From a virus (Duplodnaviria; Caudoviricetes), in IMG/VR virus record IMGVR_UViG_3300022751_000002, positions 1 through 53,640 of that record: a DNA stretch of 53,640 bases. The stretch is one strand, 5' to 3'. The notes beneath the pieces were generated by a model. The model worked only from the letters and a program-made list of their open reading frames with translations, was not told the origin of the DNA and searched no databases. A program made the translations under genes and the position numbers. Positions within the stretch are counted from its first letter, which is position 1, and each line of letters begins with the position of its first letter. Shown piece by piece: positions 2,637-51,779 of this stretch.

Positions 2637-2707
2637 ATATAAAACCGTTATAAATAATCCGTTTTTGAATACTTTTTGTACATTTGCTTTAAATTTTAGT
2701 ACATTTA
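2637..2707 (+). promoter_or_regulatory. Degenerate 19-bp box plus TACATTTG/TACATTTA -7 elements
   Basis: ATATAAAACCGTTATAAAT 2637-2655; -7 motifs at 2679 and 2700. Confidence 0.55.
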
Positions 2708-2711
2708 CAAC

Positions 2712-3002
2712 ATGGAAACGAATCAGTATCAAAAAATTGTAGCAAAAGAACTTAACGCTATTTGGTTTTACTATACTAAACAGCAAAAACTAAATCATAT
2801 AAAGCACTTGTTAACCAATTGCAAAAAATATATTGTTCATGAAGTAAATAAGCTTATTGTTTTTAATTGGAAAGATTACTGCCAAGTGATAAATACAGAA
2901 AGCAATACTTTAAAATATTTTGATTCGGAAGAAGAAGCGTTAAATTATTGTCTTGATGCTTTTAAAAATAGTGAATCATCCAAACAAGAAAAATTATTCT
3001 AA
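2712..3002 (+). CDS. Hypothetical protein
   Basis: ORF coupled to next gene (TAATG). Confidence 0.65.
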   Translation: METNQYQKIVAKELNAIWFYYTKQQKLNHIKHLLTNCKKYIVHEVNKLIVFNWKDYCQVINTESNTLKYFDSEEEALNYCLDAFKNSESSKQEKLF

Positions 3003-3586
3003 TGGAAACGAAAAGCATACAAATAGAATTTCTAAATCATAACACAGGACAAATCGAAGGATTGCCAAAAAACCCACGTGTTATAAAAGATTCCAGGTTT
3101 AAAAAATTGGTTCAGTCCATAAAAGAAGATCCTGAAATGCTAGAGCTTCGCGAATTAATCGTTATTCCTTACAAACGCCAATTCGTAGTAATAGCAGGAA
3201 ACCAACGCTTAAAAGCTTGCACAGAATTAGGATATAAAGAAATGATATGTAAAATATTGCCTGCTCAAACATCAATTGATAAGCTAAAAGCAATTACCAT
3301 AAAAGATAATATAAGTTTCGGCCAACACGATTGGGAATCACTTAATTTAGAATGGAATGATTTGCAGCTTTCGAATTGGGGCTTAGATATAGAAAAGAAA
3401 ATTGATCCCATCGGAAATAGTTCAATTGCAAAGAACGAAACCAAAAATACCAAATCCATAATGATTGCTTTTGATATAAATGAATATGATGAAGCCTTTG
3501 CGCTAATCAAGTATTTTAAAGACCGTGGTTATAATATCGGTAGTTCATTAGTACAATTGCTAAAAAAAGAAAAAGAAACGCTTTAA
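3002..3586 (+). CDS. ParB-like N-terminal domain protein
   Basis: KNPR..KLVQSI..VIAGNQRLKAC..KDN motifs; lies upstream of terS. Confidence 0.85.
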   Translation: METKSIQIEFLNHNTGQIEGLPKNPRVIKDSRFKKLVQSIKEDPEMLELRELIVIPYKRQFVVIAGNQRLKACTELGYKEMICKILPAQTSIDKLKAITIKDNISFGQHDWESLNLEWNDLQLSNWGLDIEKKIDPIGNSSIAKNETKNTKSIMIAFDINEYDEAFALIKYFKDRGYNIGSSLVQLLKKEKETL

Positions 3587-3598
3587 AACGTAATTAAA

Positions 3599-8548: not shown

Positions 8549-8574
8549 AAAGCCTCGATATTTTTCGGGGCTTT
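8549..8574 (+). terminator. Intrinsic terminator
   Basis: aaagcctcga/tcggggcttt. Confidence 0.7.
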
Positions 8575-8577: not shown

Positions 8578-8661
8578 ATTTATAATCATTATAAATTGAT
8601 GTAAACGAATAAAATATTTGTATAAAATATACATTTGAACCGAAAAAAGGATTTATATTTG
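8578..8661 (+). promoter_or_regulatory. Promoter cassette: perfect 19-bp box, TGTATA-N3-TATACA operator, two -7 elements
   Basis: ATTTATAATCATTATAAAT 8578-8596; operator 8619-8633; TACATTTG 8630, TATATTTG 8654. Confidence 0.75.
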
Positions 8662-11197: not shown

Positions 11198-11270
11198 GCA
11201 TTGGTAGTTTAATGGTAAAACAGCAGTCTCCAAAACTGTATTTAGAGGTTCGAATCCTTTCCTTTGTGCA
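11198..11270 (+). tRNA. trnW: tRNA-Trp(CCA), imperfect acceptor stem
   Basis: gcagt-ctccaaa-actgt; agagg-ttcgaat-ccttt. Confidence 0.7.
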
Positions 11271-11326: not shown

Positions 11327-11355
11327 AAAACCACTCAATTATGAGTGGTTTTTTT
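11327..11355 (+). terminator. Intrinsic terminator
   Basis: aaaaccactca/tgagtggtttt + T tract. Confidence 0.85.
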
Positions 11356-11373: not shown

Positions 11374-11415
11374 ATTTAGAATGAGTATAAATAAGGAATA
11401 AATTTTCTACATTTG
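11374..11415 (+). promoter_or_regulatory. Head-tail operon promoter with 19-bp box
   Basis: ATTTAGAATGAGTATAAAT; TACATTTG 11408. Confidence 0.7.
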
Positions 11416-11451: not shown

Positions 11452-12117
11452 ATGGCAGTTACAACAGAACAGATTAAGGCACGACTTAAGGTAAAATTTC
11501 CTAAGGCGAACTTATCACAAAAAAGGATGGATGCTTTGGCAGCTAAACTTGCGCCAAAGCCAAAAGATGGGGCTACTGATGAAGAGATTGATTCAGTTTT
11601 AGAAAATGCAAATGACTTTATGTCTTTTGAGGACATCGCAAAAGAAGATGATCGCATGAGAACATTAGAGGCAAACCAAAAGCCTAAAACAGAACCTGAT
11701 CCAACTGACCCACCAACACCAAAACCAACTGAACCTGTAATTACACCACCTGTAGGTGATGTGCCTGAATGGGCTAAAGCGCTTATTAAGCAAAACGAAA
11801 CTGTTGTTGCTGAAATTACCGCTTTAAAAACAGGAAATGTTTTGGCAACAAAAAAGGCAACGGCTGCGGAATTGTTTGGAAAATCTGAAGTGTTGAAAGC
11901 TTTAAAAGAAGAGGTTCGCCCAAATTGGATAAACAGAATAAATGTAGATTCTGAAACTTCTATTGAAGATCAGATCGCAGCATTAGAATCTGAGTACACA
12001 ATTATAGCGCAATCAAATGCTAATTCAACACCATATTCCGGACCAACTCCAACGGGATTTAATCCAGGAAACAAAGTTGATGATGCGTTAGTTGATTCGG
12101 TTGTTGCTTCAATGTAA
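11452..12117 (+). CDS. Capsid scaffolding protein
   Basis: Pro-rich linker, PEWAKAL motif, upstream of capsid genes. Confidence 0.75.
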   Translation: MAVTTEQIKARLKVKFPKANLSQKRMDALAAKLAPKPKDGATDEEIDSVLENANDFMSFEDIAKEDDRMRTLEANQKPKTEPDPTDPPTPKPTEPVITPPVGDVPEWAKALIKQNETVVAEITALKTGNVLATKKATAAELFGKSEVLKALKEEVRPNWINRINVDSETSIEDQIAALESEYTIIAQSNANSTPYSGPTPTGFNPGNKVDDALVDSVVASM

Positions 12118-12144
12118 ATATTAATTTAAAAAACAACTAAAAAG

Positions 12145-12543
12145 ATGCCAACAGCAAATTTAAACAACGAGGGCGTTCAGGTTGATACTACTTGGGATTC
12201 AATTATCATCAAAAAACTTTTGGTTGATATTCCGGGCGGTAAAACGTTAGACGTTACAGGGATCACAGAAGAGGTTTTGAAAGCCGGTCGAGTGATCATC
12301 GAGCAAACATCTAACGGAGTGTTAAAACCTTTAGCTATTACTTCAGGTGAATACGTAACACTTCCTGCAGGACATACCTACAAAGGTATTTTGTACGCTA
12401 CAATTTTGACCAAAAGACCATTCGCACCGGTTCTTTTATCAGGTGATGTTAACAATGTAGCAATTGTTAATTATGGTTTGCCGGCGGTTCCCGCTGCTGC
12501 CATTACAGCACTTGAAAATCACATTTTATTCACAAAGGATTAA
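12145..12543 (+). CDS. Head decoration protein
   Basis: IPGGKTLD..LKAG; lies between scaffold and MCP. Confidence 0.7.
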   Translation: MPTANLNNEGVQVDTTWDSIIIKKLLVDIPGGKTLDVTGITEEVLKAGRVIIEQTSNGVLKPLAITSGEYVTLPAGHTYKGILYATILTKRPFAPVLLSGDVNNVAIVNYGLPAVPAAAITALENHILFTKD

Positions 12544-12563
12544 TCCTAAAAATCATTTAAAAA

Positions 12564-13847
12564 ATGGAACAATCATTATTCCCGCAATGGGTAGATAAAT
12601 TCTTTAAAGCGATTGCGCTTAAAGTAATTGAAAAGTTAAATGGTACGACTAATCCTTTAACATACATGCATAAAACAATGCTTAGAAAAACCTTTTCAAC
12701 ATCGTTGCAATGGGGTTCAATTTCTAGCAATGGTACAGTTGTAAGAGCAGATGTAGTTGCTTTAGATTCTAGCCTTCCTTTAAAAAGAAGAGATTCAATC
12801 AGTAAAGCTACAGGTGACATTCCTAAATTAGGTATGAAAATGTATCTTAACGAACACACCATGAACGATCTTAAGATTTTAGTTGCTACGGCCGGCCAAG
12901 AATCTGAAATTTTACGTAAATTATTTGGTGATGTGAACAAATGTGTTGCGGGTATTTATGAAACCTTAGAATTTATGTTCTTACAGGCTTTATCTTCAGG
13001 TGTAACTTTGATTACAGGCGATGATTCTACAGGTGTAGGAATAAGAATTGATTTTGGTATTCCTGCAGAAAATAGATACGGTGTTACGTTGCCTTGGACA
13101 GATGCCAACGCTACTCCAATCGATGATATCAATTGGGTAAAATCTCAGGCACGTGTAAAAGGCGCAACACTTTCTTATATATTCATGGATTTAAGCACTT
13201 GGAACTTATTTAAAGCTAACACACAGGTTAAGCAAGAATTTGCTTTTTCACTTGGTTTTACCGGTTCTCAAATTCCAAATGTTCCATCTGTTGAACGTGC
13301 AAATGAGTTCTTGAAAGCAAATTACGGCGTAACTATTACAATTGTCGATAGACAAATGTTAGTAGAGAAAAACGGTGTGCGTAGCGTTACAAATCCTTGG
13401 ACCGCTAATATCGTTACTTTCTTAACTGATTTGAATGTTGGTACTTTAACTTATGGTTCATTGGCAGAAGAAACATTCCCTGTTAAGCAAGTTACTTATA
13501 CCAAAGTAGATGATTTAATTTTGATTTCTAAATATGGTAAAAACGATCCTGTAAGAGAATTTACTTCTTCTCAGGCTTTAGCTTTGCCGGTTTTAGATAA
13601 TGTTGATTCAATTTATTTAATGGACGTTTCTGATGCTGATATAAGCGCACAAACTGAAGGTGATGCAAATTACAGCTATGAAGGTACTAACTATACTAAA
13701 GTTTCAGTTATTGCAGGTTTAAATGCTGCTGATTCAACTAATAAGTTAACTACTTCTTCAACAGATGCATCAATCAAAAAAGCAATAAATAAGCTTAACG
13801 AGGAACAAATTTTGATCTTTGAAGCTCAATTAGTAGCATCAGCATAA
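12564..13847 (+). CDS. Major capsid protein (lambda gpE-like) with C-terminal extension
   Basis: ADVVALDSSLP, GDIPKLG, IDFGIP, ATPIDDI, SSQALALPVL. Confidence 0.9.
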   Translation: MEQSLFPQWVDKFFKAIALKVIEKLNGTTNPLTYMHKTMLRKTFSTSLQWGSISSNGTVVRADVVALDSSLPLKRRDSISKATGDIPKLGMKMYLNEHTMNDLKILVATAGQESEILRKLFGDVNKCVAGIYETLEFMFLQALSSGVTLITGDDSTGVGIRIDFGIPAENRYGVTLPWTDANATPIDDINWVKSQARVKGATLSYIFMDLSTWNLFKANTQVKQEFAFSLGFTGSQIPNVPSVERANEFLKANYGVTITIVDRQMLVEKNGVRSVTNPWTANIVTFLTDLNVGTLTYGSLAEETFPVKQVTYTKVDDLILISKYGKNDPVREFTSSQALALPVLDNVDSIYLMDVSDADISAQTEGDANYSYEGTNYTKVSVIAGLNAADSTNKLTTSSTDASIKKAINKLNEEQILIFEAQLVASA

Positions 13848-13848
13848 T

Positions 13849-14430
13849 ATGTATAGTCCTGAAAGCATACAGTCCTTAGTGGATAGAATTGGATTCGCTG
13901 AACCAATGGATTCTAATTTTGCAATTACACTTTATCCTGAAGTGATTTTGTCGAATTCAGGCCGTTATGTGAATTCATTTCATCAACTAGCGATAGTTGA
14001 AAATATTTATTCGGCGATTCCACAAATAAACATGTTGGAATCGCCGTTTAATACTTACTTGCAAAGTATGAAAACTCAGGCTGTTTTAGAGTCGCTAAAT
14101 GAAATCATCAACAAAGATTCTCGTTCACTTATTGATACTGATTATTCAAACATAATAATTACCAATCCGTTTATTTTTGATGATGTTATTGGTTACACAA
14201 TCGCAATAAAATGCATTGAATTATTTATTTCTACATCAAGAAAAAACTTATTCGAACGTAACGCAAAAGAAGCCTACGAGAAGTTAAAAATGGAATTGGA
14301 AGGCGTTAGGAGTGATTCGGGTGCAATTGTCGCACAAGGAATAAAAAGAGAACGTTATTATGCTGTTCGAAAAGCTAAAGAAGTAATCTTTCCCTTTGAA
14401 ATTCCTGTTGATGGAACAAAATCATGGTAA
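13849..14430 (+). CDS. Head-tail connector/adaptor (putative)
   Basis: Position after MCP. Confidence 0.55.
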   Translation: MYSPESIQSLVDRIGFAEPMDSNFAITLYPEVILSNSGRYVNSFHQLAIVENIYSAIPQINMLESPFNTYLQSMKTQAVLESLNEIINKDSRSLIDTDYSNIIITNPFIFDDVIGYTIAIKCIELFISTSRKNLFERNAKEAYEKLKMELEGVRSDSGAIVAQGIKRERYYAVRKAKEVIFPFEIPVDGTKSW

Positions 14431-14431
14431 T

Positions 14432-14989
14432 ATGAATTATACTATAACAAATCCTAAAGGATTAGATGAACAAGTACAGTATACACAAAAACTTTTGTTC
14501 GACAATCTAAAAACTAAATGGAAAACATCGGGAATTAGTCCTGATACTACATTAGATGTTTTTGGAAGGATCAGAAGAAACCCTGTTAGTGATGATTTTT
14601 ATCCGGAAGCGTATATTGGTGATGGTGAGTACCGAGATTTGTATTTGAATGATGCTGTAAACGCTACGATTTGTTTTATTGAAGAAGATCGGGATCATAC
14701 AACGGACGATTTCAATGAGTTCTATTTTGCTGAGGGAAAATTTGTAGTAATGATGAATCTTAAGAATTGTTATCCAACTATTTTGCATCGTGCAGATTCT
14801 GAAGCTCAATTAGATGTTATTGCTCAGATCAAGAAAAACAAAATGTTTGCTATTGATGGTATTCAAAAAGGATTAGAAAATATATTCAAAGGTTTTAAAA
14901 CTGATAATATTAAAACTGATGATATGCAGCCATTTCATTGTTTTGCCATTACCGGCACAATGAAATATAAAATAAATATTAATTGTTAA
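14432..14989 (+). CDS. Neck/tail-completion protein (putative)
   Basis: Position before tail tube; ATG 14432. Confidence 0.5.
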   Translation: MNYTITNPKGLDEQVQYTQKLLFDNLKTKWKTSGISPDTTLDVFGRIRRNPVSDDFYPEAYIGDGEYRDLYLNDAVNATICFIEEDRDHTTDDFNEFYFAEGKFVVMMNLKNCYPTILHRADSEAQLDVIAQIKKNKMFAIDGIQKGLENIFKGFKTDNIKTDDMQPFHCFAITGTMKYKININC

Positions 14990-15008
14990 TTAAATAAAAA
15001 TAGAACTT

Positions 15009-15887
15009 ATGGCAATATTTGTAAAATGCAAAGGCAAAGATCAAAATAAGCGAAATACAGGTGCGAAAGAGCAATGTATCGAAGGTGTTATGATTCGTAC
15101 TGCGGTTGCCATTCCTGGATTCCAATTTGATAGCCGTGATGATGCGGAAGATTTGGATAAATGGAATGCAGCAGTTGCCGCAAAACAGATTTTCCCTCTT
15201 TACGAAGCTGAGGAAGTTACAACTGCAAACACGGAACCTACATATTTTGAAGGTCGTAGACAACAATATCTTACTTCAAATGGTAAAAAGATCACAACAT
15301 TCACCAGTATTTTAGGTTTATGTTCTCATTTTGCTTTAACGTCATTCGGTGATACTCCTTTACAATTGTTCGAATTCACAGAGGATGGAGCAATTAAAGG
15401 TGTAAATACTACTGATGGAGGCGTAAAAGGTCAATCGGTTAAACTAAATGTTGGACCACGTTTAGATGCAACAGCAGACAGGCCGCCATCCACATTGGTA
15501 ACAATCAATTATTTGGATTCAAGTGAATTCGAACAAAATGGTTGGATTGGCAGACCTGAATGGAGAGATTCAGAATTGTTTGGTATTTTCGATGTTACAC
15601 TTACACAGGTTTCAGCAAGCGCAACCGTTATTAAATTAACAGCAGGCGTTGGTTGTGCGGGTGGTGATGAATTAGTTGAAACTTTTGTATTAGCTAATTT
15701 TGTAGTTAGAAATCTTACGGGCGTTATTCAAACAGTAACTTTTACAGCTCCGGATTCTGAAGGTGTTTATACATTGACAGGTACAGGTTTTGCAGATGGT
15801 TATACTGTTGAATTGCTAGGTGTTGTAACTGTTGGCGGGCTTTCTTATGAAACTCCTGAAACATTAATTCTAGAAGTTACACCATAA
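15009..15887 (+). CDS. Major tail (tube) protein (putative)
   Basis: Size, position, beta-rich C-terminal domain. Confidence 0.7.
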   Translation: MAIFVKCKGKDQNKRNTGAKEQCIEGVMIRTAVAIPGFQFDSRDDAEDLDKWNAAVAAKQIFPLYEAEEVTTANTEPTYFEGRRQQYLTSNGKKITTFTSILGLCSHFALTSFGDTPLQLFEFTEDGAIKGVNTTDGGVKGQSVKLNVGPRLDATADRPPSTLVTINYLDSSEFEQNGWIGRPEWRDSELFGIFDVTLTQVSASATVIKLTAGVGCAGGDELVETFVLANFVVRNLTGVIQTVTFTAPDSEGVYTLTGTGFADGYTVELLGVVTVGGLSYETPETLILEVTP

Positions 15888-16105
15888 TGCCAAAGTATAA
15901 AGGTATAGAGTTCCCGAATGGATATAAAACTTCATTCGGGCAATTCAAAAAAGACTTTTCTGATAGTCATGTTTTTAAAGATACCCCCGCCGAAAATCTA
16001 GATTCAGAACTAGAAAAAGCTTATGAATTTTTAACCAATCAAAATGGCAAACTTCAATCAACAACTAAAGAAAGCAAGAAGTCTGACACCGACACGATTA
16101 AGTAA
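15887..16105 (+). CDS. Small tail-region protein
   Basis: TAATG-coupled. Confidence 0.6.
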   Translation: MPKYKGIEFPNGYKTSFGQFKKDFSDSHVFKDTPAENLDSELEKAYEFLTNQNGKLQSTTKESKKSDTDTIK

Positions 16106-16493
16106 TGACTTGTTTAAATTTATCAGGCAGATTGAAAAAGAAATTGTAAAGCTGAATGTTGACCAAATAAACATTGATAGCAAAGATATTTACAATAAGA
16201 ATATCGGTTTTTATTCTTATATGACTGAAGTTATTACTAATGGAAGAAAAAAAAGAGGTGAGCCTTTCGATGGTAAGGAATCCGGTAAATGGTTAGGTAG
16301 TTTTTACGTTGATATTCAAGGAAAAGCTTTCAGATTATTTGCTACAGATCCGAAAACACATCTTATTTTAGATAGTGAACATTGGCTTTCAGATGATTTA
16401 TTTGGACTTACTGACAAAAATCTTAAGGAGTTAATCGCTAGTCGCTTAGCTCCTTTTTTTATTGAAAACCTCAGAAACAACTTAGATATATGA
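16044..16493 (+). CDS. Virion morphogenesis protein (HK97 gp10-like, putative)
   Basis: ESGKWLGSF, DDLFGLT; position. Confidence 0.5.
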   Translation: MANFNQQLKKARSLTPTRLSNDLFKFIRQIEKEIVKLNVDQINIDSKDIYNKNIGFYSYMTEVITNGRKKRGEPFDGKESGKWLGSFYVDIQGKAFRLFATDPKTHLILDSEHWLSDDLFGLTDKNLKELIASRLAPFFIENLRNNLDI

Positions 16494-17095
16494 TTTACAA
16501 CAGTCTTGATACTATACCCCATAAAACATTTTTAAAAATTGCCGCAACAGGTGATTTTTCTTTATTAAGTGATACCGAAGAAAGTTTGACCATCTTACAA
16601 ATAATTTGGGAAAAACTATTCCAAGAACATTTAGAACTTGATAGCACACCGGAATCAAAAAGAGAATTCAGAATTACTTTAGATGTTGAATCTTTAGAAA
16701 TGGAACATAAATTTATTGTTGGCGCATGTGATTGTTTGGAATTTGATATTGATGATGAATTAATTGAAATTCTAAGAACAAAACGATATTATATTAGGAC
16801 TGATTGCACAGAAAACTACTATCAGGACATAGAACAGGTAAAACGTTTCGCAAAAGGGCTAAATATCAAGATAAAAACGCTAAAGAATCAATTACCAAAA
16901 GAAGATTCAGAAGAAAACCAACCTTTACAGCATGAAAAATTAACAATTGATGATATAATGTGCGGTTATGCTGATATTATGGGATTCGATTTTGATTACA
17001 ATACGGTTTCTTATATGAAGTTTAGAGCAATTAAACGCCAGGTAAATAAAAAGATGAAACAAATATCAGAACAAAACGCGAAAGCTAAAAAATAA
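16490..17095 (+). CDS. Tail assembly chaperone (putative)
   Basis: Directly upstream of tape measure. Confidence 0.5.
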   Translation: MIYNSLDTIPHKTFLKIAATGDFSLLSDTEESLTILQIIWEKLFQEHLELDSTPESKREFRITLDVESLEMEHKFIVGACDCLEFDIDDELIEILRTKRYYIRTDCTENYYQDIEQVKRFAKGLNIKIKTLKNQLPKEDSEENQPLQHEKLTIDDIMCGYADIMGFDFDYNTVSYMKFRAIKRQVNKKMKQISEQNAKAKK

Positions 17096-17100
17096 ATACT

Positions 17101-20100
17101 ATGGCAAATGATGGTGTTATTACGCAAAAAGATATTATAGAAGATAAAGCCCTTACTATCGGTAAACAATATGCTGATAATATGGTTCAGGCGATTGAAG
17201 CAAATAAACAATTTGTTGAATCATTGAAAGCCATTAATAAATTGGCTCAGGAATTCAAAGGAATCAAAGATCAATCAGGATACATTACAGCCAAGCAACA
17301 GCAAGCTTTAGAAACTCAAAAAATGATTGATGCAATTAAGCGACAAGAAGCCGCTGAAATTTCCATGAATAAAATTGAGCAGGAAAGAATTAAAACATCT
17401 AAAGCCGATGCGGATGCTCAAAATAAATTGTCAGTTCAAAAGCAACGAGGCACTAAACTAACACTTGAAGAAAGAATTCAATTAGAAATAGCAAATAAAG
17501 CAGCAAAACAAGCTACTTTGGAAAGATTAGGATTGGTAGGCGCTTATACCAAATTAAACGCAGCAAGAACAGCCGCTAAAAAAACACTTTTAGATTTATT
17601 GGCGGCTGAAAACCAAGATATAAAAGCGATTAAAGAAGCGACTAAAGCTTTTGATGCTTTAGATAAACGAGTTCGTGCCGCTGATCAGGCTGTTGGTGAT
17701 TTTCATAAATCAGTTGGTAATTATCCAAATTTAAAAGGCTTTGCAAAAGGTTTAAAAGATTTGGCAGGGGCTTTTGGTTTGGTTGGCGGGATTACTGCAT
17801 TTGCTGCAATATTAGGTGATGCCTATAAAACTATAAAAGCTTTTGAACAATCATTAGCTGATTTAAGTTCAATTACAGGCGCAACGGGTAAAGACTTATC
17901 ATTTCTTAAAAACTCAGCTATTGATTTAGGTCAAAAGGTTCAAGGAGGCGCACAGGCTGTTGTTGAGGCTTATAAATTAATTGCAGGTGCTAAACCTGAA
18001 TTACTTGATAATGTTAAAGCATTGAACCAAGTGACAGAAGCCGCAATTACTTTATCTCAGGCTGCAGGTTTAGAACTTCCGGAAGCGGCAACTGCTTTAA
18101 CTGATGCAATGAATCAATTTGGCGCGGCGGCTGATGAAGCGCAAATTTTCATTGATGCTTTGGCTAATGGTGCAAAATATGGATCTGCTGAAATTCCTCA
18201 ATTAACTGAATCTTTATTAAAATTTGGGGCTGTTGCGCGTAGTTCTAATGTTAGCATACAGGAAAGCGTTGCATTAGTTGAATTATTGGCTGAGAATGGA
18301 TTAAAAGGAGCGGAAGCAGGTACAGCATTGAGAAATGTGTTATTGAAGATTTCAGCGCCTAATGCATTGCCGAAAATGGCACGTGCTGAATTTGAAAGAT
18401 TAGGTATTTCTTTAGAAGAATTAGGTAATAACGCTATTCCTATTCAAAGAAAATTAGAATTACTAAAACCATTATTAAAAGATAACGCATCGATTGTAAA
18501 AGTTTTTGGTCTTGAAAATGCAACGGCTGCAATCAACGTTCTTTCTCATACCGATAGATTGAAAGAGTTGACAGGTCAAATGAATGAACTTGGTACTGCT
18601 GAAAAACAAGCTGAAACTCGTATGAATACGTTAACAGGTAAAACGGAATTACTTAAAAGTACTTATGATAGTTTCATTTTATCAATCGGAAATGGTTCAG
18701 GTGTGGTTTCTGAGTTCTTTAAATTCTTTATCGATGGTGCAAGCGGTGCTTTAAAAGAATTAATCAGGTTAAATACTTCATGGGATGATTTGTTTGGTAA
18801 AGCAAAACTAGAAGGTGCTGCGGAAGGCGCTAAAGCATTTTCACAAAGATTGCAATTCCAAATGTCAGGAGGCTCAAAAGATGAGGCAGGGCAATTAGAT
18901 GCAATTAGAAAAGCAGCTTTCAATCAAAGAAAAGTATTGTATGAGGAATTTTTGAAAAATCAAAAGCAATTAAAAGATTTTAATCCTTGGGCGATTAATT
19001 TATCCGGCGTTAGCGGAAAGGATCTTAAAAAACGTAAAGAAGAACTTTTAAAAGCTATTGCATTAGAAGAAGAGGTCATGAATCAGGCTGAAGCCAAAAA
19101 ACTATCTTTAAATAAAAAGAAAGGTCCCGTTGCAACAGCAGAAACTCCAATTGTGGGATTATCAGACAAAGAACTTAAAGATGCTTTAAAACGCCAAAAA
19201 GAATTAAACGATACTTTGTTTGAATTGGAACACCAAAGGCTAGAAAGAATCGCCCAATTAAACGGTGAAATTGTTTCTGATGATAAATTAAAAGATGATA
19301 TCCGAATAGGTGCTGCTAAAAATGTAAACAAAGCCGAATTAGATTTAATCGATCTTGTTAAAAAGCATAAACTTGATGCTGATAAATTCGTTTTAGATGA
19401 AGATAAAATGAATGCCAATCAAAAGTTATTCATAGAGCGTGAAGCAGCCAACAAAATCGTTGATATAAATAAAAAAATGCAAAAAGACATTGATCAAATT
19501 CGTTTGTTCGATGAAGCATCATATACTAAATCAATGGAAAAGCGTATTTCTCGTATCAATGAGAATATGAATAAGGAGTTAGAACTTGAAAACATTCGTT
19601 TTAAGGAATTAGGCGATTTAGAATCATTGAAATTTAGTGAACGCGAAAAGCTTACGCAAGATCATGAAAACAGGATTTTTGAGATTAAAAAGAAAGCTGC
19701 GTTGGCTTCTTTGCGTGCCCAGGCTGATACTTTACAAAATGAATTAGATGCTTCAGATGCATTACCTGATAAAGAGCGTTTGACTGCTGAAAAACGTCAG
19801 GAAATAGCCGAAAAACTAAGTAAAGCTAAATCAGATATTGCAGAAAAAGAGTTAGAAAAAAATGATAAGAAGAATAAAAAAATATTAGATGCTGAATTAA
19901 AATTAGCTGAAGATATTAGAGAAATTTCAAATGATTTAGCTAATGCATTGGGAAGTTTAGCAGATGCAATTTCAGAACGTAAACTCCAAAATATTGAAGC
20001 TGAAATCGATAAAAACAATGAGTTTTATGATAAACAAATTGAATTAGCCGGCGAAGATGAAAAGCAAAAAGATCTTTTAGAAAAAGAGCGAGAAAAAAAG

Positions 20101-20721: not shown

Positions 20722-20723
20722 AA

Positions 20724-22955: not shown

Positions 22956-22958
22956 GAT

Positions 22959-26653: not shown

Positions 26654-26688
26654 GTTTAGATTAATTCTAAATAGTTTTAGTACATTTG
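26654..26688 (+). promoter_or_regulatory. Tail spike/lysis promoter with 19-bp box
   Basis: GTTTAGATTAATTCTAAAT; TACATTTG 26681. Confidence 0.7.
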
Positions 26689-31767: not shown

Positions 31768-31772
31768 CAAAT

Positions 31773-31844: not shown

Positions 31845-31849
31845 CAAAT

Positions 31850-31921: not shown

Positions 31922-31926
31922 CAAAT

Positions 31927-31999: not shown

Positions 32000-32005
32000 C
32001 AAAAT

Positions 32006-32086: not shown

Positions 32087-32095
32087 CAAATACTT

Positions 32096-32167
32096 TTCAG
32101 TATAGTTTAACGGATAAAATTTGCGGTTACGACCCGTGCGATGGGAGTTCGAATCTCTCTACTGAAA
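32096..32167 (+). tRNA. trnR: tRNA-Arg(ACG)
   Basis: ttcagta/tactgaa; gcgg-ttacgac-ccgt. Confidence 0.88.
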
Positions 32168-32174
32168 CATTTTT

Positions 32175-32205
32175 AAACCCAATCTATTAATTTAGGTTGG
32201 GTTTT
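32175..32205 (+). terminator. Terminator ending the tRNA array
   Basis: aaacccaatcta/taggttgggttt. Confidence 0.8.
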
Positions 32206-32207: not shown

Positions 32208-32280
32208 ATTTATAATCATTATAAATTATGTTTATTTATTTTTTCTTTGTATTTTTTATACAAATGTTTTATTACATTTG
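32208..32280 (+). promoter_or_regulatory. Early promoter cassette (19-bp box, operator, -7)
   Basis: ATTTATAATCATTATAAAT; TGTATTTTTTATACA 32248; TACATTTG 32273. Confidence 0.75.
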
Positions 32281-35291: not shown

Positions 35292-35320
35292 CAAAACCCG
35301 TTATATTAAAGCGGGTTTTG
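35292..35320 (+). terminator. Intrinsic terminator
   Basis: caaaacccgtt/agcgggttttg. Confidence 0.75.
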
Positions 35321-35322: not shown

Positions 35323-35383
35323 ATTTAGAAACATTATAAACTACCAATAAACGTATTTTGCATGCGTATATTTTATACATTTA
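35323..35383 (+). promoter_or_regulatory. Early promoter cassette
   Basis: ATTTAGAAACATTATAAAC; CGTATATTTTATACA 35365; TACATTTA 35376. Confidence 0.7.
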
Positions 35384-37519: not shown

Positions 37520-37546
37520 AAAAGCTACTTTAACGAGTGGCTTTTT
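37520..37546 (+). terminator. Intrinsic terminator
   Basis: aaaagctactt/gagtggcttttt. Confidence 0.75.
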
Positions 37547-37549: not shown

Positions 37550-37610
37550 ATTTAGAATCTGTATAAACTACAACGTAATGTATTTTATATACAAATATTT
37601 TATACATTTA
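37550..37610 (+). promoter_or_regulatory. Early promoter cassette
   Basis: ATTTAGAATCTGTATAAAC; TGTATTTTATATACA 37579; TACATTTA 37603. Confidence 0.7.
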
Positions 37611-43192: not shown

Positions 43193-43534
43193 ATGAAAAC
43201 AGGAATTGAGTTAATCACAGAAGAAAGACAAAAGCAAATCACAAAACATGGTTTTACGGCCGAGCACCACGCTTTAAATTCTGAAAAATGGTATAAAGAA
43301 TATCAATTAACAACATGCGCTAGTTTACTTATACACCAAGATCAGGAAAACGGATTAAATGACGCTTTAATTGATTTAGGAAAATCACAATTAAACAATT
43401 GGGATTTAGATTGGTTTGATAATATGATGCGTAGACCCGATAAAGAACGTTTAATTATTGCGGGTGCTTTAATTGCTGCCGAATTAGATCGTTTGAATTA
43501 TATTGAAGAAAATAACATTTCAGGAAGAGTGTAA
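43193..43534 (+). CDS. Hypothetical phage protein
   Basis: EERQKQI..AGALIAAELDRL. Confidence 0.75.
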   Translation: MKTGIELITEERQKQITKHGFTAEHHALNSEKWYKEYQLTTCASLLIHQDQENGLNDALIDLGKSQLNNWDLDWFDNMMRRPDKERLIIAGALIAAELDRLNYIEENNISGRV

Positions 43535-43706
43535 TTTAAAATCATTATAAATTACCTTAAATTGTTTGTAAATTCAAATAAATGTGTATTTTTGCTACTG
43601 TATTGAAGTGAGACGCAATACCAACTACAGTAACATAACGGAAAATATTATACAAGTCCTATCAGGGCGGCACGTCTCACACCTTTGCTAAACTGATAGG
43701 ATTTTG
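43534..43706 (+). promoter_or_regulatory. 19-bp box, promoter and kissing-loop leader RNA B
   Basis: ATTTAAAATCATTATAAAT; TATTTTTG 43587; gtgagacg/cgtctcac loops. Confidence 0.65.
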
Positions 43707-43726
43707 CTATTTAAATACTTTTTATT

Positions 43727-45929: not shown

Positions 45930-46712
45930 ATGCCATATTTTAAAGCATTTATCAGAGTTGTAAAATCAATTAATTTAGATCAAGGCTACAGTAATATGTT
46001 TGGATCTGAAAACGTAATTGAAGAAAGATTCATCGAATCAGAATCTAAAGAATCTGTTAAACAATATATTTTAGAGAAATATCCTCAGTTCTTTCAAAAC
46101 GGAAAAGTTTATAGTCGTGAAACAAAAGACGAAGCACAATTTTTTTATCTACTAATTTACCCACTTTATAGTTATGAGGTTACTTTGGCCACTTCAGGAG
46201 AATGGAAATGTAGTGAATGCGGTCAAGTTCATCAAAGTGAATATCATTCAAGACCTCGAACATATGATCGTATTTTTCCAGATAAACTTTTTTGCAATTC
46301 ACCTGCCGATACATGTTTAAATAACCATAAAAAAGAATATTATAAAGATGTAGAATTGCCGGATGATGAATGTTACATTAAAAAAGATTCTCCAAACTAT
46401 ATTTATAAAATTACCGAGAAATCAACATCAAAATGCTACATTGGCAAAACTCGTAACGCTCCTTTTTTTAGATGGTGGAATCATTTAAAACACAGCAATA
46501 GCCCTTTTGGTTTGTATTTATCTAAAACAAAACTAAGTGATTGGATATTTGAAGTGTTAGAAGAATTACCTGCCGAAATAGAAGATTCAGAAGTTTTTAG
46601 AATTGAAAGCGAATATATTGTTAAACATGATTGTTTAAACAACGGTTTTAATTCATTGATAAGCAATAAAAAAGTTATTAAAACAGAATCTAATCAATTA
46701 GAATTATTATGA
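45930..46712 (+). CDS. GIY-YIG nuclease with upstream zinc finger
   Basis: CSEC..C..C; YIYKIT..CYIGKT..RWWNH; NGFN. Confidence 0.82.
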   Translation: MPYFKAFIRVVKSINLDQGYSNMFGSENVIEERFIESESKESVKQYILEKYPQFFQNGKVYSRETKDEAQFFYLLIYPLYSYEVTLATSGEWKCSECGQVHQSEYHSRPRTYDRIFPDKLFCNSPADTCLNNHKKEYYKDVELPDDECYIKKDSPNYIYKITEKSTSKCYIGKTRNAPFFRWWNHLKHSNSPFGLYLSKTKLSDWIFEVLEELPAEIEDSEVFRIESEYIVKHDCLNNGFNSLISNKKVIKTESNQLELL

Positions 46713-47612: not shown

Positions 47613-47951
47613 ATGAAAAATTTACAAATGTCATTAAAAACTAAGTGGTTTGAAATGACTAAAGCAGGAATTAAGAAAGAGGATTATCGCGAAATAACTC
47701 CTTATTGGATTTCACGTTTAACCAAAGGAGAAAACTTTTCAATTATTGAAAATGAAGATGGTGTAGAAATTAATGCTGAATTTAAACATTTTGATTTCAA
47801 TGTTATGACATTGGGTTATCCAAAATCAGGAGATACCGAAAGGACTTTAAAAATTGAGCATGCAGGAATAGAAATACGAACCGGAAATCCGGAATGGGGG
47901 GCAGAGCCAGGTAAGTTGTATTTTGTAATTAAGCACGGAATTGTAATTTAA
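47613..47951 (+). CDS. ASCH-domain protein
   Basis: KWFEMTKAGIKKEDYREITPYW, GNPEWGA. Confidence 0.8.
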   Translation: MKNLQMSLKTKWFEMTKAGIKKEDYREITPYWISRLTKGENFSIIENEDGVEINAEFKHFDFNVMTLGYPKSGDTERTLKIEHAGIEIRTGNPEWGAEPGKLYFVIKHGIVI

Positions 47952-48006
47952 AATAATTCTAAACTACGTTTCAATGTATTTTGTGTTTGTATAAAAAGTA
48001 CATTTA
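47946..48006 (+). promoter_or_regulatory. Early promoter cassette
   Basis: ATTTAAAATAATTCTAAAC; TGTATAAAAAGTACA 47988; TACATTTA 47999. Confidence 0.7.
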
Positions 48007-48034: not shown

Positions 48035-50254
48035 ATGGAATACAAAAAATTTCTAGACACGAAACGTAAAACTTTTATAGAAAGTGGTTTCGAACTTGAA
48101 GAATCAAAACTAAACTCATTATTAAAAGACTTTCAATCATTCGGAGTTAAAACAGCGCTGTTTAAAGGTAGATTTGCTTTTTTCTTTGATTGTGGATTAG
48201 GGAAAACTTTTTGTCAATTAGAATGGGCGCATCAAGTTAATTTAAAAACTAAAAAACCAGTTCTTATTTTGGCGCCATTAGCAATTGTTCAACAGACAAT
48301 CGACGAAGGAAGTAAATTTGGAATTGATATTTACAAATATGATTTTGAATGTCTAACATCATTAGACGAACCTGATATTTTTATTTGCAATTATGATCAA
48401 TTAAAAAATATTGATTGTTCTGTATTCTCGGGAATTGTTTTAGATGAATCAAGCATCTTAAAAGGACGTGATGGTAAATTATCATCATTGATTATTGAAA
48501 CATTCAAAAACACGCCTTACAAACTTTGTTGCACCGCAACGCCATCGCCAAATGATCACATGGAATTAGGACAGCATTCTGAATTTTTAGGCGGAATGTC
48601 TTATTTGGAAATTTTAGCTATGTTCTTTGTTCACGACGGAGGTGAAACTTCAAAATGGCGATTAAGAAAACACGCAAAGGATGCTTTTTGGCGATATGTT
48701 GCTACGTGGTCAATGGCAATAGATAATCCTGCAAGTTTAGGATTTGATTCTGAAGGATATGAATTGCCTGAAATTGAATATATAGAGCATATTATAAAAG
48801 TTAATAATACTAGCGATAATTTATTTGGTGATGTTGCTGTTTCTGCAACTGATTTGCATAAAGATTTAAATCGTTCCTTTGATGCAAGAATAAAAAAAAC
48901 AATTGAAATTGTTACAGAAAACGAAGATCAATTTATTATTTGGGGTTTAAAAAACATTGAAACAGATACGCTTTCAAAACTTATTCCGGATTCTGTAAAT
49001 GTTCAAGGATCAGATAAACCCGAGCACAAAGCAAAATATTTGAATGGATTTGCTAAAAAGGAATTTAAAAGGCTTATTACAAAAACTTCTATAGCTTCTT
49101 TTGGGATGAATTACCAACAATGCGGACAAATGATATTTACTTCTTATGATTTTAAATTTGAAGCATTTTATCAAGCGGTTAGGCGTTGTCATCGTTTTGG
49201 CAGAAAAGGAAAAGTAAAGGTTCACATTCTTATTCCTGAAAGCCAGGTTAATGTAAGGAATTCAATTTTAGAAAAAGAAAAACAACATTTTGAAAGGATT
49301 CATGAAATGGCAAAATATAGTTCAGAAGCAAATTACAAAACAGCTAAATCAAAAGTAAAAATTATGAACAAAGAAATTAAAACAGATCAATATCATTTAA
49401 TTAATGGTGATTGCGTTCAGGAATCAAAAAATATTCCTGATAATGCTGCCGATGTAATTGTCTTTTCTCCACCTTTCGCAGAACTTTACGTTTATTCAGA
49501 TAAAGAGGAAGATATGGGGAATGTTTCAGATTACAAACAATTTGAAACTCATTTTAAATATCTCATTCCCGAATTAAAAAGAATTCTTAAAAGTGGGCGT
49601 ATGTGCGCTATTCATTGTATGGATCTTCCGATTCAAAAAGGGAAAGAAGGTTATATTGGATTGCGTGACTTTTCAGGAATGCTAATTGATTGGTTTCAAA
49701 AAGAAGGGTTTATTTATCACTCAAAAGTTACATTGTGGAAAAATCCTGTAACAGAAATGCAACGTACAAAAGCATTAGGATTGCTGCATAAAACGATTAA
49801 AAAGGACTCTATTATGTCACGTGTTGGGATTCCGGATTATGTTTTGTTTTTTAGAAATGAAGGTGATAACGAAACACCAATCACACACCAAGATAAAGAC
49901 AGTAGTAGAGGTGATTATTTGCCTGTTGATTTATGGCAAAAATATGCTTCGCCTGTTTGGTATGATATTGATTATTCTAGAACTTTGCAATATCGTTCTG
50001 GTCGTGATGGAAATGATGAAAAACATATTTGCCCGCTTCAATTAGACACAATAGAAAGGATTTTACATTTATATTCAAATGAAGGCGAAACTGTTTTTAG
50101 TCCATTTGGCGGGATTGGTTCTGAGGGATGTTCAGCAATTAAAATGAACCGTAAATCTATTTCGATAGAATTAAAAGAAAGTTATTTTAAAATCAATGAA
50201 AGTAATCATAAAGCATTTGTTGAAGAAAAAAATTCAACTTTAACACTTTTTTAA
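48035..50254 (+). CDS. SNF2-like helicase fused to N4C/N6A DNA methyltransferase
   Basis: CGLGKT, LDESS, TATP, QAVRRCHRFG; FSPPF, HICPLQ, SPFGGIGS. Confidence 0.9.
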   Translation: MEYKKFLDTKRKTFIESGFELEESKLNSLLKDFQSFGVKTALFKGRFAFFFDCGLGKTFCQLEWAHQVNLKTKKPVLILAPLAIVQQTIDEGSKFGIDIYKYDFECLTSLDEPDIFICNYDQLKNIDCSVFSGIVLDESSILKGRDGKLSSLIIETFKNTPYKLCCTATPSPNDHMELGQHSEFLGGMSYLEILAMFFVHDGGETSKWRLRKHAKDAFWRYVATWSMAIDNPASLGFDSEGYELPEIEYIEHIIKVNNTSDNLFGDVAVSATDLHKDLNRSFDARIKKTIEIVTENEDQFIIWGLKNIETDTLSKLIPDSVNVQGSDKPEHKAKYLNGFAKKEFKRLITKTSIASFGMNYQQCGQMIFTSYDFKFEAFYQAVRRCHRFGRKGKVKVHILIPESQVNVRNSILEKEKQHFERIHEMAKYSSEANYKTAKSKVKIMNKEIKTDQYHLINGDCVQESKNIPDNAADVIVFSPPFAELYVYSDKEEDMGNVSDYKQFETHFKYLIPELKRILKSGRMCAIHCMDLPIQKGKEGYIGLRDFSGMLIDWFQKEGFIYHSKVTLWKNPVTEMQRTKALGLLHKTIKKDSIMSRVGIPDYVLFFRNEGDNETPITHQDKDSSRGDYLPVDLWQKYASPVWYDIDYSRTLQYRSGRDGNDEKHICPLQLDTIERILHLYSNEGETVFSPFGGIGSEGCSAIKMNRKSISIELKESYFKINESNHKAFVEEKNSTLTLF

Positions 50255-50256
50255 TT

Positions 50257-50985
50257 ATGGGAATTCCAATAAAAGAAAACGAAATCATTGAAGAATGGCG
50301 TTATCATCCAAAACTTGGAGATAATTATTTAGTATCAAATACAGGAATCATAAAAAGTATTTCAAGATATGTAAAGTTTAATGGAAATTTAATTTTTAAA
50401 AAGACTATTAATTTAAAATATCAAATAAGTAAAAAAGGATATTATACAATTAGAATTGATTCAAATGGAATTAAAAAAACTTTGGTAGTACATAGATTAG
50501 TAGCTCAATTGTTTGTTCCAAATCCATTTAATTTACCTCAAGTAAACCATAAAGATTTGAATAAGCTAAATAATAATTATACTAATTTTGAATGGAATAA
50601 TAATAGGCAAAACACAACACATTATAGAGAAAATGTTATTCATACATCTATTCATGTAGGTGTTCATTGGAACAAAAAAGACAATATTTGGGTATCTCAG
50701 ATATATATTTTAAATAAAAAATATACAGTTGGCAGCTTTAAATGTCAGCACAAAGCCAAAGAAGCTTATGAGTTAGCCTTAAAAAATTGGAATTTAAATA
50801 GAATACTTCCTGAATCAAAACGATCTTCAAAATATAAAAATATTTCTTTTAATAAGAGAAGAGGCAAATGGCATGCATACTCGATTGTTAATTCAAAAAT
50901 TAAAACAATTGGTTTCTTTGAAACTGAAGAAGAAGCTAATTTAAATAAAAATAATTATGATAAATCCAAAAAAGAAGGCTTGTAA
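50257..50985 (+). CDS. NUMOD4-HNH-AP2 homing endonuclease
   Basis: EEWR..YLVSNTG, VHRLVA, VNHKDLNKLNN, two AP2-like repeats. Confidence 0.88.
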   Translation: MGIPIKENEIIEEWRYHPKLGDNYLVSNTGIIKSISRYVKFNGNLIFKKTINLKYQISKKGYYTIRIDSNGIKKTLVVHRLVAQLFVPNPFNLPQVNHKDLNKLNNNYTNFEWNNNRQNTTHYRENVIHTSIHVGVHWNKKDNIWVSQIYILNKKYTVGSFKCQHKAKEAYELALKNWNLNRILPESKRSSKYKNISFNKRRGKWHAYSIVNSKIKTIGFFETEEEANLNKNNYDKSKKEGL

Positions 50986-51658
50986 AGGTATAAATGTTGC
51001 AAAAGATTTAGGTTGTGGAAAACTAACTTTTCATCGCAAACTAGGCTTAGGCCTTATGTGCGGGTGTTATTCTGACTTCCTTCTTAAAACGGAACCAGGC
51101 AAATTGATTATGCAAAAGGCTATGCTGAAAGGTAAAAACAACAATCAAAAAATAGTTATTAAGAATAACCGCGAAGAAATTAAGCAGCAAAAAGAAAATC
51201 TAAAAACAATTTCCGCTTTTAGAAATGATCTTCAAAAAGAAATTAACTCTATCATCCGTTTAATTGATAATGGTCATGCATGTATAGCAACTAATAAATT
51301 TGTTGGAAAAATGAACGCAGGCCATTATATTTCGGTTGGATCAAACGGAACCATCAGATACCACTTAGAAAACATTTGGTTGCAATCTGAGCATTCTAAC
51401 AGTTGGAAAGCCGGCGATACTATTCGATATCAAAAAGGTATTAGGAAATTGTTTGGTAGGGATTATTTGGAGTACCTAGATTCTTTACAATCAATTGCAC
51501 CAATAAAGTTAACAATCCCGGAAATCAAAGAAAAAATTTCAATTTGCCGCGGAATAATCAAATGGTTAAAATTACAGGATAGAATTTTTTCAACTGAAGA
51601 AAGATTAAGTTTAAGACTTAGGTTTAACAAAGAAATTGGAATTTATGATCCAACTTAA
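50957..51658 (+). CDS. ninG: NinG/Rap-like endonuclease
   Basis: IRLID..CIA..AGHYISVG..RYHLENIWLQ. Confidence 0.75.
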   Translation: MINPKKKACKGINVAKDLGCGKLTFHRKLGLGLMCGCYSDFLLKTEPGKLIMQKAMLKGKNNNQKIVIKNNREEIKQQKENLKTISAFRNDLQKEINSIIRLIDNGHACIATNKFVGKMNAGHYISVGSNGTIRYHLENIWLQSEHSNSWKAGDTIRYQKGIRKLFGRDYLEYLDSLQSIAPIKLTIPEIKEKISICRGIIKWLKLQDRIFSTEERLSLRLRFNKEIGIYDPT

Positions 51659-51779
51659 ATATTGGAAATCGCTAACCAAATCCCAAAAGCAGGAATTAAT
51701 GAAAGCCAACAATATAAAATCGGTTTCATTCGATTTCATTAAAATCTGCTATTTAGAATCATTATTAATTAAGCCTTAA
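51645..51779 (+). CDS. Hypothetical protein (44 aa)
   Basis: Overlaps ninG end. Confidence 0.45.
   Translation: MIQLKYWKSLTKSQKQELMKANNIKSVSFDFIKICYLESLLIKP

Follow-up and report, generated by a model that had tools for sequence, protein, structure and literature searches.

Fur-type palindromes at phased positions upstream of nearly all operons of a tailed phage may tie its transcription to host iron state

The genome of an uncultured Caudoviricetes virus, probably a phage of marine Flavobacteria, analysed here as one window of 53,640 nucleotides, carries a 19-bp palindrome that recurs in front of its operons, which raises the question of what protein reads it. A sequence-only reading of this DNA had listed ten copies. 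Scanning the window with the consensus ATTTAGAATNATTCTAAAT at three or fewer mismatches gave nine matches, while 100 dinucleotide shuffles averaged 0.56 and never gave more than 3; eight of the nine were on that list (8578, 11374, 26654, 32208, 35323, 43534, 47946 and 51751). The remaining match, at 19616, is probably due to chance, since it scores 9.1 bits, lies inside the tape-measure ORF (listed as 17101-20721) and is without a nearby -7 box. Another listed copy, at 37550, has four mismatches to the consensus yet scores 20.1 bits. The recurrence is therefore real, with nine strong copies in 53.6 kb where fewer than one is expected, while the tenth listed copy, at 2637, scores 5.7 bits and is not credible; it had been called weak from the outset. 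Three boxes in the genome are exact, and the centre base is C or G in seven of the nine. An Rfam scan of the phage genome returned tRNAs only.

To describe the arrangement of these boxes, gaps were counted from the end of the box to the -7 box, for which the Bacteroidota pattern TAnnTTT[GA] was used. All nine strong boxes lie upstream of such a -7 box. The boxes and their neighboring elements are as follows.

8578..8596: Fur-type box, 24.7 bits; directly 3' of the portal-gene terminator; 33 bp to the -7 box at 8630-8637
11374..11392: Fur-type box, 23.6 bits; 15 bp to the -7 box at 11408-11415; capsid/tail operon 11452-24989
26654..26672: Fur-type box, 19.2 bits; between divergent promoters
32208..32226: Fur-type box, 24.7 bits; preceded by the tRNA-array terminator; 46 bp to the -7 box at 32273-32280; operon of an SbcC-like gene
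35323..35341: Fur-type box, 21.9 bits; preceded by a terminator; 34 bp to TACATTTA at 35376-35383; RecT operon
37550..37568: Fur-type box, 20.1 bits; preceded by a terminator; 34 bp to TACATTTA at 37603-37610
43534..43552: Fur-type box, 22.7 bits; overlaps the stop codon of ORF 43193-43534; 34 bp to TATTTTTG at 43587-43594
47946..47964: Fur-type box, 20.0 bits; overlaps the end of ORF 47613-47951; 34 bp to TACATTTA at 47999-48006; helicase/methylase operon
51751..51769: Fur-type box, 21.7 bits; 34 bp to TACATTTG at 51804-51811; operon from 51845
2637..2655: weak look-alike, not counted as a member, 5.7 bits; -7-like boxes 23 and 44 bp downstream
8549..8574, plus strand: terminator hairpin, -15.4 kcal/mol, ending at the 8578 box
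11327-11352, 32175-32204, 35292-35320 and 37520-37545: similar terminator hairpins

The gap is 33-34 bp at seven promoters, 46 bp at one and 15 bp at the capsid operon. Six copies had been placed 33-34 bp from the -7 element and indeed lie there (33 bp at 8578; 34 bp at 35323, 37550, 43534, 47946 and 51751), and the closer gaps noted at the capsid and tail-spike promoters were found as well (15 bp at 11374 and 8 bp at 26654 on the plus strand). The box at 26654 faces two directions, with 34 bp to a minus-strand -7 box (26612-26619) in front of a small-gene cluster (26607-25041) and 8 bp to a plus-strand -7 box (26681-26688) in front of a BNR/sialidase-like tail gene and the lysis genes. Five of the nine boxes (8578, 11374, 32208, 35323 and 37550) have just upstream of them a strong hairpin of -11 to -16 kcal/mol with a run of T behind it, in keeping with the description of the boxes as often following a terminator. 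Because the -7 box of the 37550 promoter falls inside the ORF listed from 37578, this ORF must start further downstream, probably at an in-frame ATG at about 37644. A structured leader is present downstream of the promoter at the 43534 box. Boxes precede nearly all phage operons, including those expected to be expressed earliest, and several promoters, at about 30826 and 40338, are box-less.

The palindrome had been likened to the proposed Fur box of Riemerella anatipestifer. The sequence given for that box appears unaltered in PMC5609570 (section 18, Table 5 and the discussion), where the predicted Riemerella Fur box has the same 19-bp 9-1-9 consensus. Compared with this type of inverted repeat, eight of the strong phage sites have three or fewer mismatches and one has four. 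In the Riemerella papers, Fur is reported to shift promoter fragments containing the box (PMC5609570), an EMSA was carried out on the rhuB promoter with such a box (PMC10986502), and deletion of the Fur box raises transcription of rhuH (PMC11967795). Table 2 of PMC5609570 also gives lower expression of a cytochrome c oxidoreductase subunit gene in the fur mutant, which may be a weak hint of activation by Fur. Our literature searches, which covered journals outside subscription, found no description of Fur boxes on phage promoters.

We then compared the phage motif with the boxes of host iron-uptake genes and found the same box at feoAB and at TonB receptor genes. At feoAB, the best match of the whole 3.4-kb locus (at 9 bits or more) falls at one place in 21 of 24 Flavobacteriaceae loci. 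In 20 of these 21 it starts 2-5 bp after TAnnTTTG; the match covers the transcription start. No consistently placed match was seen in six loci having just a small FeoB_N-like ORF, where the best scores did not exceed 10.2 bits. A matrix built only from the feoAB boxes of the sampled Flavobacteriaceae gave nine matches of at least 12 bits in the phage genome, where 0.71 are expected from 100 simulations. It recovered eight of the nine strong boxes, missed 37550 and gained a match at 49541 (12.4 bits). This additional match lies inside the listed ORF 48035-50254 and was treated as chance.

Exact boxes occur 28 times in 61 host genomes, compared with once for the reversed control, and all 20 that were fetched are intergenic. 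Their neighbors are TonB receptors (5), multihaem cytochrome c (3), nqrA (3), hemA (1), DUF4856 (1) and other or unknown genes (7). At nqrA the best match is upstream of the promoter in 17 of 30 loci, with gaps of 43-46 bp (10 loci), 55-57 bp (4), 34 bp (1), 67 bp (1) and 38/46 bp (1). Sixteen of these 17 boxes (16 of the 30 genomes) thus lie at 34, 43-46, 55-57 or 67 bp; the other 13 loci have no box of at least 10 bits. Among 30 HmuY loci, searched with a 1.5-kb flank beyond which the promoter may fall, four had a match of at least 11 bits, two of them being the same site twice. With the HmuY loci set aside as uninformative, these comparisons support the palindrome as the Fur-type box of Flavobacteriales.

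The distances at which the box is placed follow a common rule in viruses and hosts. A perfect box was found in at least 124 viral stretches, compared with 4 for a reversed palindrome of equal composition, making this control at least 30 times rarer in viral contigs. Perfect viral boxes occur at the same phased distances, namely 13-16, 34-35, 44-45 and 55-56 bp from the -7 box; 54 of 125 have no TAnnTTTG within 75 bp. When viral loci were grouped by alignment-based clustering into 48 promoter groups, 30 lay at 13, 14, 16, 34, 35, 44, 45, 55 or 56 bp (binomial p about 3e-15, with the allowed classes defined post hoc from the same data on which they were scored). Of the 39 boxes scoring at least 16 bits in the fetched phage genomes, 37 are accompanied by a -7-like box at one of the allowed distances, compared with 4.3% of random positions. 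The combined series of phage, viral and host nqrA sites runs 13-16, 34-35, 44-46 and 55-57 bp and is all but empty near 24 bp. Across unrelated promoters the sites are thus spaced in increments of roughly 10.5 bp, with one further class close in, as expected for binding to one face of the helix, again with classes drawn post hoc.

This series changes how the geometry is best understood. The close boxes had been proposed to act by covering the polymerase footprint; this idea is not supported as stated, since the 15-bp and 33-34-bp gaps belong to one phased series that hosts also use at nqrA. The 8-bp tail-spike gap is out of phase, and the 26654 box instead fits the divergent minus-strand promoter at 34 bp.

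The arrangement is also kept among relatives of the phage. The capsid-promoter box, 13-15 bp from its -7 box, persists down to 45% portal identity, including in a Psychroflexus prophage region and a Flavobacterium MAG contig. Among named phages, Cellulophaga phage Nekkels_1 has the most similar capsid protein (38.6% identity), and a megablast of 8 kb against named phages gave only a tRNA-sized match. In Nekkels_1, a cultured relative, both of the two strong boxes are matched by -7-like boxes in phase, one at 34 and 56 bp and the other at distances that include 34 and 46 bp. Riemerella phage RAP44 was considered as a test system and set aside, as it has one weak match (16.2 bits) without a -7-like box at a phased distance.

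From these data, we consider it reasonably probable that the nine palindromes are sites for a host-encoded dimer of the Fur family, most likely Fur itself, at phased promoter positions, and phage gene expression would then probably be tied to the iron state of the host cell. This link to host iron status is the best reading because the box marks host iron genes and because no phage regulator was found. The earlier suggestion that host iron status sets the phage programme stands insofar as a Fur-type box is present at host iron, respiratory and haem genes; binding and iron dependence at the phage sites we infer from sequence. Several observations count against the best reading: the 13 nqrA loci without a box, the few matches at HmuY loci, the viral boxes with no TAnnTTTG nearby, the many small phage ORFs of no known function and, as taken up below, the absence of a box at fur and the differing centre base. 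Classic Fur operators, moreover, overlap the core promoter, whereas eight of the nine phage boxes end 15-46 bp upstream of the -7 box and do not cover the core promoter or start site; the sole box within 8 bp of a -7 box is 26654, and this on one strand.

The most serious alternative, which we nevertheless consider unlikely, is that another host regulator reads the palindrome, either a second Fur-family member (Zur- or PerR-like) or an unrelated dimer controlling respiration and iron genes. A single high-scoring Fur (88-98 bits) is present in each of the 21 sampled Flavobacteriaceae genomes, and 13 of them have one to three further, weaker members of the family that could fill this role. Host targets such as nqrA, multihaem cytochrome c and hemA would suit a respiratory regulator, and fur itself has no box upstream in 20 genomes at 9 bits or more, its best matches being inside coding sequence. 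Moreover, the centre base is C or G in 105 of 125 perfect viral boxes but A or T in 18 of 21 exact host boxes, a difference that could reflect affinity tuning or another family member. Against this, eight of the 21 genomes have no Fur-family gene other than Fur, and the box covers the start site of feoAB, a hallmark Fur target, in 20-21 of 24 genomes. In the Riemerella work cited above, purified Fur shifts promoters with the box and box deletion derepresses rhuH.

It is also improbable that the phage itself encodes the binder, a protein of unknown fold that would run the programme, with the likeness to a Fur box arising from mimicry or competition. The sequence-only reading held that the phage encodes no Fur, and a search of all six frames with the Pfam FUR model (E<=10) was empty. 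There were likewise no HTH or Fur matches among the phage proteins in PHROGs, Pfam or NCBIfam, searches that remote homologues could escape. No recognisable DNA-binding regulator was found, and most of the small ORFs have no family match, which leaves room for such a binder. The box-less promoters could drive an early regulator gene. In addition, late promoters without a -33 element often need a phage activator. However, chromosomal nqrA and feoAB promoters of many hosts carry the box, under the same spacing rule, and the boxes stand before nearly all operons, even those expected earliest. Even where phage proteins have diverged to 45% identity, the box is unchanged. Unrelated box-bearing phages share no candidate either: at a BLASTP cutoff of 1e-4, no protein, and so no DNA-binding regulator, is common to this phage and G089, G090, G092 and G093, and G092 shares no proteins at all with this phage.

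Less probable still is that the boxes are mainly a decoy, in which replicating phage DNA titrates Fur and turns on host iron uptake while promoter control is secondary. Exact boxes are about 400 times denser in the phage than in the host genomes (3 in 53.6 kb versus 28 in 61 genomes of 1.6-5.4 Mb). Viral boxes are also nearer the perfect palindrome, which was found in 2 of 81 host genomes and in two copies each in the relatives G004 and G005. A decoy needs no fixed promoter distance, yet 37 of 39 boxes are phased, and other phages have only one to three boxes each. Finally, we regard as very improbable an A+T-rich upstream promoter element or duplicated promoter cassette without a specific binder: further common sequence between box and -7 box in the 34-bp class does suggest promoter duplication, but flanks are unrelated at 8578, 11374, 26654 and 43534, the box occurs in phages of 41-45% G+C, its palindrome is strict and its G/C positions are fixed, and the reversed control of equal composition is far rarer.

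How might host Fur act at these sites? The phased layout resembles that of an activator in contact with RNA polymerase, not that of a simple block. Activation is favored by the spacing series with its near-empty 24-bp slot and by the capsid promoter, where the box sits in the place normally taken by the -33 element. We propose that iron-loaded Fur would bind the phage boxes, placed upstream of nearly all sigma-A-type phage promoters, and touch RNA polymerase from one face of the helix, such that phage transcription would follow the iron state of the host. If so, the phage programme would run best in iron-replete cells. The direction of control is the least secure step of this proposal, as repression from the same boxes would instead give expression under iron starvation. 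As the phage replicates, the roughly ten strong sites on each genome copy could also sequester Fur. A more tentative extension, possible but doubtful, is that iron-loaded Fur is a class I/II-type activator in Flavobacteriia (at nqr, cytochrome c and haem genes) that many unrelated Bacteroidota phages have adopted as a general promoter recruiter. Lytic development would then be licensed by host iron sufficiency, and the roughly ten sites would subsequently drain Fur and derepress host iron uptake, a copy-number-driven switch for phage and host.

Host iron regulators are known to act on phage-borne genes, in that the stx1 promoter of Shiga-toxin phages has a Fur site and tox of corynephage beta is under DtxR. 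As in those phages, a host iron regulator is predicted here to read a site in phage DNA, although there it governs one iron-repressed accessory toxin gene and here the replication, capsid, tail and lysis operons. The spacing resembles that of activator-dependent promoters of the CRP type, which fall into class I and class II. In both, sites form a close class and upstream classes separated by one turn of the helix, and the slot in between is nearly empty. However, the palindrome is odd-centred (9-1-9) in the style of the Fur family, unlike the even spacer of CRP and FNR sites, the promoters are of the Bacteroidota -33/-7 type, and activation is our proposal. In Neisseria, Fur exerts positive control from upstream sites. 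We know of no phased spacing rule or phage use from Fur activation in either Neisseria or Caulobacter. For Caulobacter, direct positive control by Fur from upstream sites is reported (PMC2724300), and the phage sites would resemble both systems in that Fur can act positively at iron-using genes. There is also a close likeness to the Fur regulon of R. anatipestifer, with an identical 19-bp 9-1-9 consensus and a box at iron-uptake genes (PMC5609570, PMC10986502, PMC11967795), whereas the published sites act in repression at host iron-uptake promoters and those described here belong to a phage, at nearly every promoter, mostly upstream and in phase.

If these predictions are correct, Fur in Bacteroidota would work from phased upstream sites and not only as a promoter block. 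Across much of the ocean iron is a limiting nutrient for bacteria, and Flavobacteria have a major part there in breaking down algal blooms. Iron supply would then be directly linked to viral production and lysis through the replication, capsid, tail and lysis operons of the phage.

The window spans an entire IMG/VR virus record, 53,640 bp long, with a 127-bp repeat at its two ends and a G+C content of about 31%, and the + strand holds nearly all of its genes.

Principal features of the phage genome, by start or interval
5621: terminase
7082: portal
11198-11269: tRNA-Trp, one of seven tRNA genes
12564: major head protein
17101: tape measure
25041-26607, minus strand: small-gene cluster
26709: BNR/sialidase-like protein, 865 aa
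30253: M15 endolysin
31694-32168: six-tRNA array (Pro, Glu, Gln, His, Leu, Arg)
Recombination/replication set: SbcC-like, RecT, NinB, helicases, DnaD-like protein, NinG, methylases

The ORF listed at 31849-32190, which overlaps the tRNA array, is probably spurious. Among the replication genes are two probable homing endonucleases (45930-46709 and 50257-50985): one ORF is of the GIY-YIG type, the other is an HNH/NUMOD4 ORF that also carries an AP2 DNA-binding domain. Of the named phages, Cellulophaga phage Nekkels_1 is closest (38.6% capsid-protein identity), and IMG/VR contains relatives by portal protein at 98 to 54% identity. Three remoter portal relatives (44-47%) are found in genome records of Flavobacterium sp., Psychroflexus aestuariivivens and Tenacibaculum sp., which places the phage host, as judged from these relationships, in the Flavobacteriaceae.

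With up to three mismatches allowed, the window contains nine matches to the consensus of a 19-bp Fur-type palindrome (9-1-9), whereas 100 dinucleotide shuffles averaged 0.56 matches and never gave more than 3. Eight of these are among the ten boxes of the sequence-only reading. The box at 37550 has four mismatches yet reaches 20.1 bits with a matrix made from the sites, while the one at 2637, already marked as weak, scores 5.7 bits and is no credible member. The ninth consensus match, at 19616, was rejected as due to chance: it falls within the tape-measure ORF, with a score of 9.1 bits and no promoter near it. All nine strong boxes precede a −7 box, the Bacteroidota promoter element TAnnTTT[GA].

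Gaps from the end of each box (named by start coordinate) to the −7 box
33 bp: box 8578
34 bp: boxes 35323, 37550, 43534, 47946 and 51751
46 bp: box 32208
15 bp: box 11374, capsid and tail operon
8 bp: box 26654, + strand, tail-spike promoter
34 bp: box 26654 to the −7 box at 26612-26619, minus strand, small-gene cluster promoter

The palindromes and promoter layout were thus confirmed as first observed, including six copies at 33-34 bp (33 bp at 8578, 34 bp at five others), the gaps of 15 bp at the capsid and 8 bp at the tail-spike promoter, and the frequent position just after a terminator, a strong hairpin standing directly before five window boxes. Almost all box-associated promoters carry TACATTT[GA], and several palindrome-free −7 boxes (11049, 24992, 31556 and 40338) read TATATTTG. 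Two promoter flavours can be told apart, with and without the palindrome, the latter preceding the tRNAs and the helicase operon at 40480 among others. Separately, the 132-nt leader 3' of the 43534 promoter (43595-43726, + strand) folds more stably than shuffled sequence (z −2.6) and is closed by a hairpin with a U run behind it; by eye, an 8-nt stretch near its 5' end seems complementary to part of that hairpin. This leader has no Rfam match; it may act as an attenuator or represent a small RNA.

The sequence-only reading had likened the palindrome to the Fur box of Riemerella anatipestifer. Riemerella shares its order with the Flavobacteriaceae but is placed in another family; for this reason we looked for the motif in a set of Flavobacteriaceae genomes chosen around the Tenacibaculum record that holds a portal relative. 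The sequence cited in that reading is in print as the predicted R. anatipestifer Fur box, with eleven sites in Table 5, and purified Fur gel-shifts four promoters of that species (PMC5609570). The rhuB promoter, which contains such a box, is also shifted (PMC10986502), and deletion of the Fur box raises rhuH transcription (PMC11967795).

Of 24 feoAB loci scored with the phage matrix, 21 had a best match of at least 9 bits over the whole 3.4-kb locus, and this match was always in one place. In 20 of the 21 the box starts 2-5 bp after the TAnnTTTG just before feoA, so that the start site is covered. Six other loci with only a small FeoB_N-like ORF had no consistently placed match (best scores at most 10.2 bits). 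A matrix derived solely from these 21 feoAB boxes gave nine window matches of at least 12 bits, compared to 0.71 in 100 Markov simulations, and eight of the nine are sites of the sequence-only reading. Across 61 genomes, exact ATTTANAATNATTNTAAAT occurs 28 times and the same pattern read backwards once. All 20 exact host boxes fetched are intergenic; their neighbours are TonB-dependent receptors (5), multihaem cytochrome c (3), nqrA (3), DUF4856 (1), hemA (1) and other or unknown genes (7), and an earlier three-genome sample had the same kinds of neighbours. One high-scoring Fur gene is present in every one of the 21 genomes sampled for it, eight of which lack any other family member. A box match was found in 4 of 30 HmuY loci, where the promoter possibly lies beyond the fetched flank, and upstream of the fur gene itself in none of 20 genomes. 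The centre base is C or G in 105 of 125 perfect viral boxes among the IMG/VR matches listed and in 7 of 9 window boxes, unlike the exact host boxes, where it is A or T in 18 of 21. Taken as a prediction from sequence, the identification of the palindrome as the host Fur box is well supported.

Could a phage protein read the box instead? A six-frame search of the window gave no Fur at E ≤ 10, in agreement with the earlier statement that the phage encodes none, and PHROGs, Pfam and NCBIfam revealed no recognisable DNA-binding regulator. For four further phages with boxes (31-50 kb, 34-45% G+C, 1-3 boxes each), no protein is common to all of them and the window phage, and one of the four has no protein at all in common with it (BLASTP, 1e-4). 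Both the box and its spacing rule are present at chromosomal promoters too. This makes a host protein the more economical choice, and to our knowledge published binding to this box is by Fur only.

The spacing rule is common to host and phages. In IMG/VR, at least 124 stretches contain the perfect palindrome ATTTAGAATNATTCTAAAT, compared to 4 for the reversed palindrome of equal composition. Among the matches listed, 54 of 125 perfect boxes have no TAnnTTTG within 75 bp; the remainder gave 79 oriented promoter instances, clustered at ~72% interval identity into 48 groups. The gap is 13, 14, 16, 34, 35, 44, 45, 55 or 56 bp in 30 of these 48 groups, again among the matches listed, and between 20 and 30 bp in only 2. 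In the fetched phage genomes and loci, a −7-like box stands 13-16, 33-35, 44-46 or 55-57 bp from 37 of the 39 boxes that score at least 16 bits, compared to 4.3% of random positions, for gap classes picked after the data were seen and in a set that partly overlaps the IMG/VR one. The post-portal promoter gap is 33 bp in the window and 45 bp in two relatives, thus a 12-bp change of about one helical turn. The capsid-operon box, at 13-15 bp, is retained in relatives down to 45% portal identity, including the Psychroflexus prophage region and the Flavobacterium contig. Nekkels_1, a cultured relative that could serve as a test system, has two strong boxes, 10494 with −7-like boxes at 34 and 56 bp (one per strand) and 37360 with several −7-like boxes, including those at 34 and 46 bp. 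An unrelated 35.7-kb phage (G090, 41% G+C) has four boxes (2938, 3365, 32188 and 35493), three of them 34 bp from a −7 box; a second conserved word (…AAGTGCTTGCAG…) follows each of the four, which suggests a second shared promoter element.

On host chromosomes, the locus-best match lies upstream of the nqrA promoter in 17 of 30 nqrA loci, with gaps to the −7 box of 43-46 bp (10 loci), 55-57 bp (4), 34 bp (1), 67 bp (1) and 38/46 bp (1), and the sequence of the interval is not conserved. Host cytochrome c loci have a gap of 46 bp. Together with the feoAB start-site boxes, these upstream boxes point to two host uses of the element: at uptake genes it covers the start site, and at respiratory genes it stands upstream by one or more helical turns. 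At loci L253, L254, L260 and L035 the nqrA box sits in a divergent region shared with a type 9 secretion plug-protein gene, and this gene may be controlled likewise.

Host Fur probably controls the phage promoters in a position-dependent way: iron-loaded Fur would occupy the phage sites and, once bound, would touch RNA polymerase from one helix face. What the sequences show is the sites themselves, their agreement with the host box and their phased positions. The 8-bp tail-spike gap is out of phase; the 26654 box suits the minus-strand promoter at 34 bp better. The gap series consists of one close class and further classes one turn apart, with the ~24-bp slot almost empty, and class II and class I activator sites likewise form a close class and then turn-spaced classes. 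At the capsid promoter, the box sits at the usual position of the −33 element.

Fur is best known as a repressor. Host metal regulators control single phage-borne accessory genes (stx1, tox), whereas the window phage has boxes on most of its own operons. In the openly accessible full-text literature that we searched, neither a phage whose own operons mostly carry Fur boxes nor a phased spacing rule for Fur is described. Positive action of Fur is known in a few bacteria (PMC2724300), and the only hint of it in this order is a lower expression of a cytochrome c oxidoreductase subunit gene in a Riemerella fur mutant (PMC5609570, Table 2). Because the gap series resembles that of class I and II sites and the capsid promoter has its box at the −33 position, we favour activation, the weak step of the argument: Fur would activate the phage promoters, and the phage programme would be strongest in iron-replete cells.
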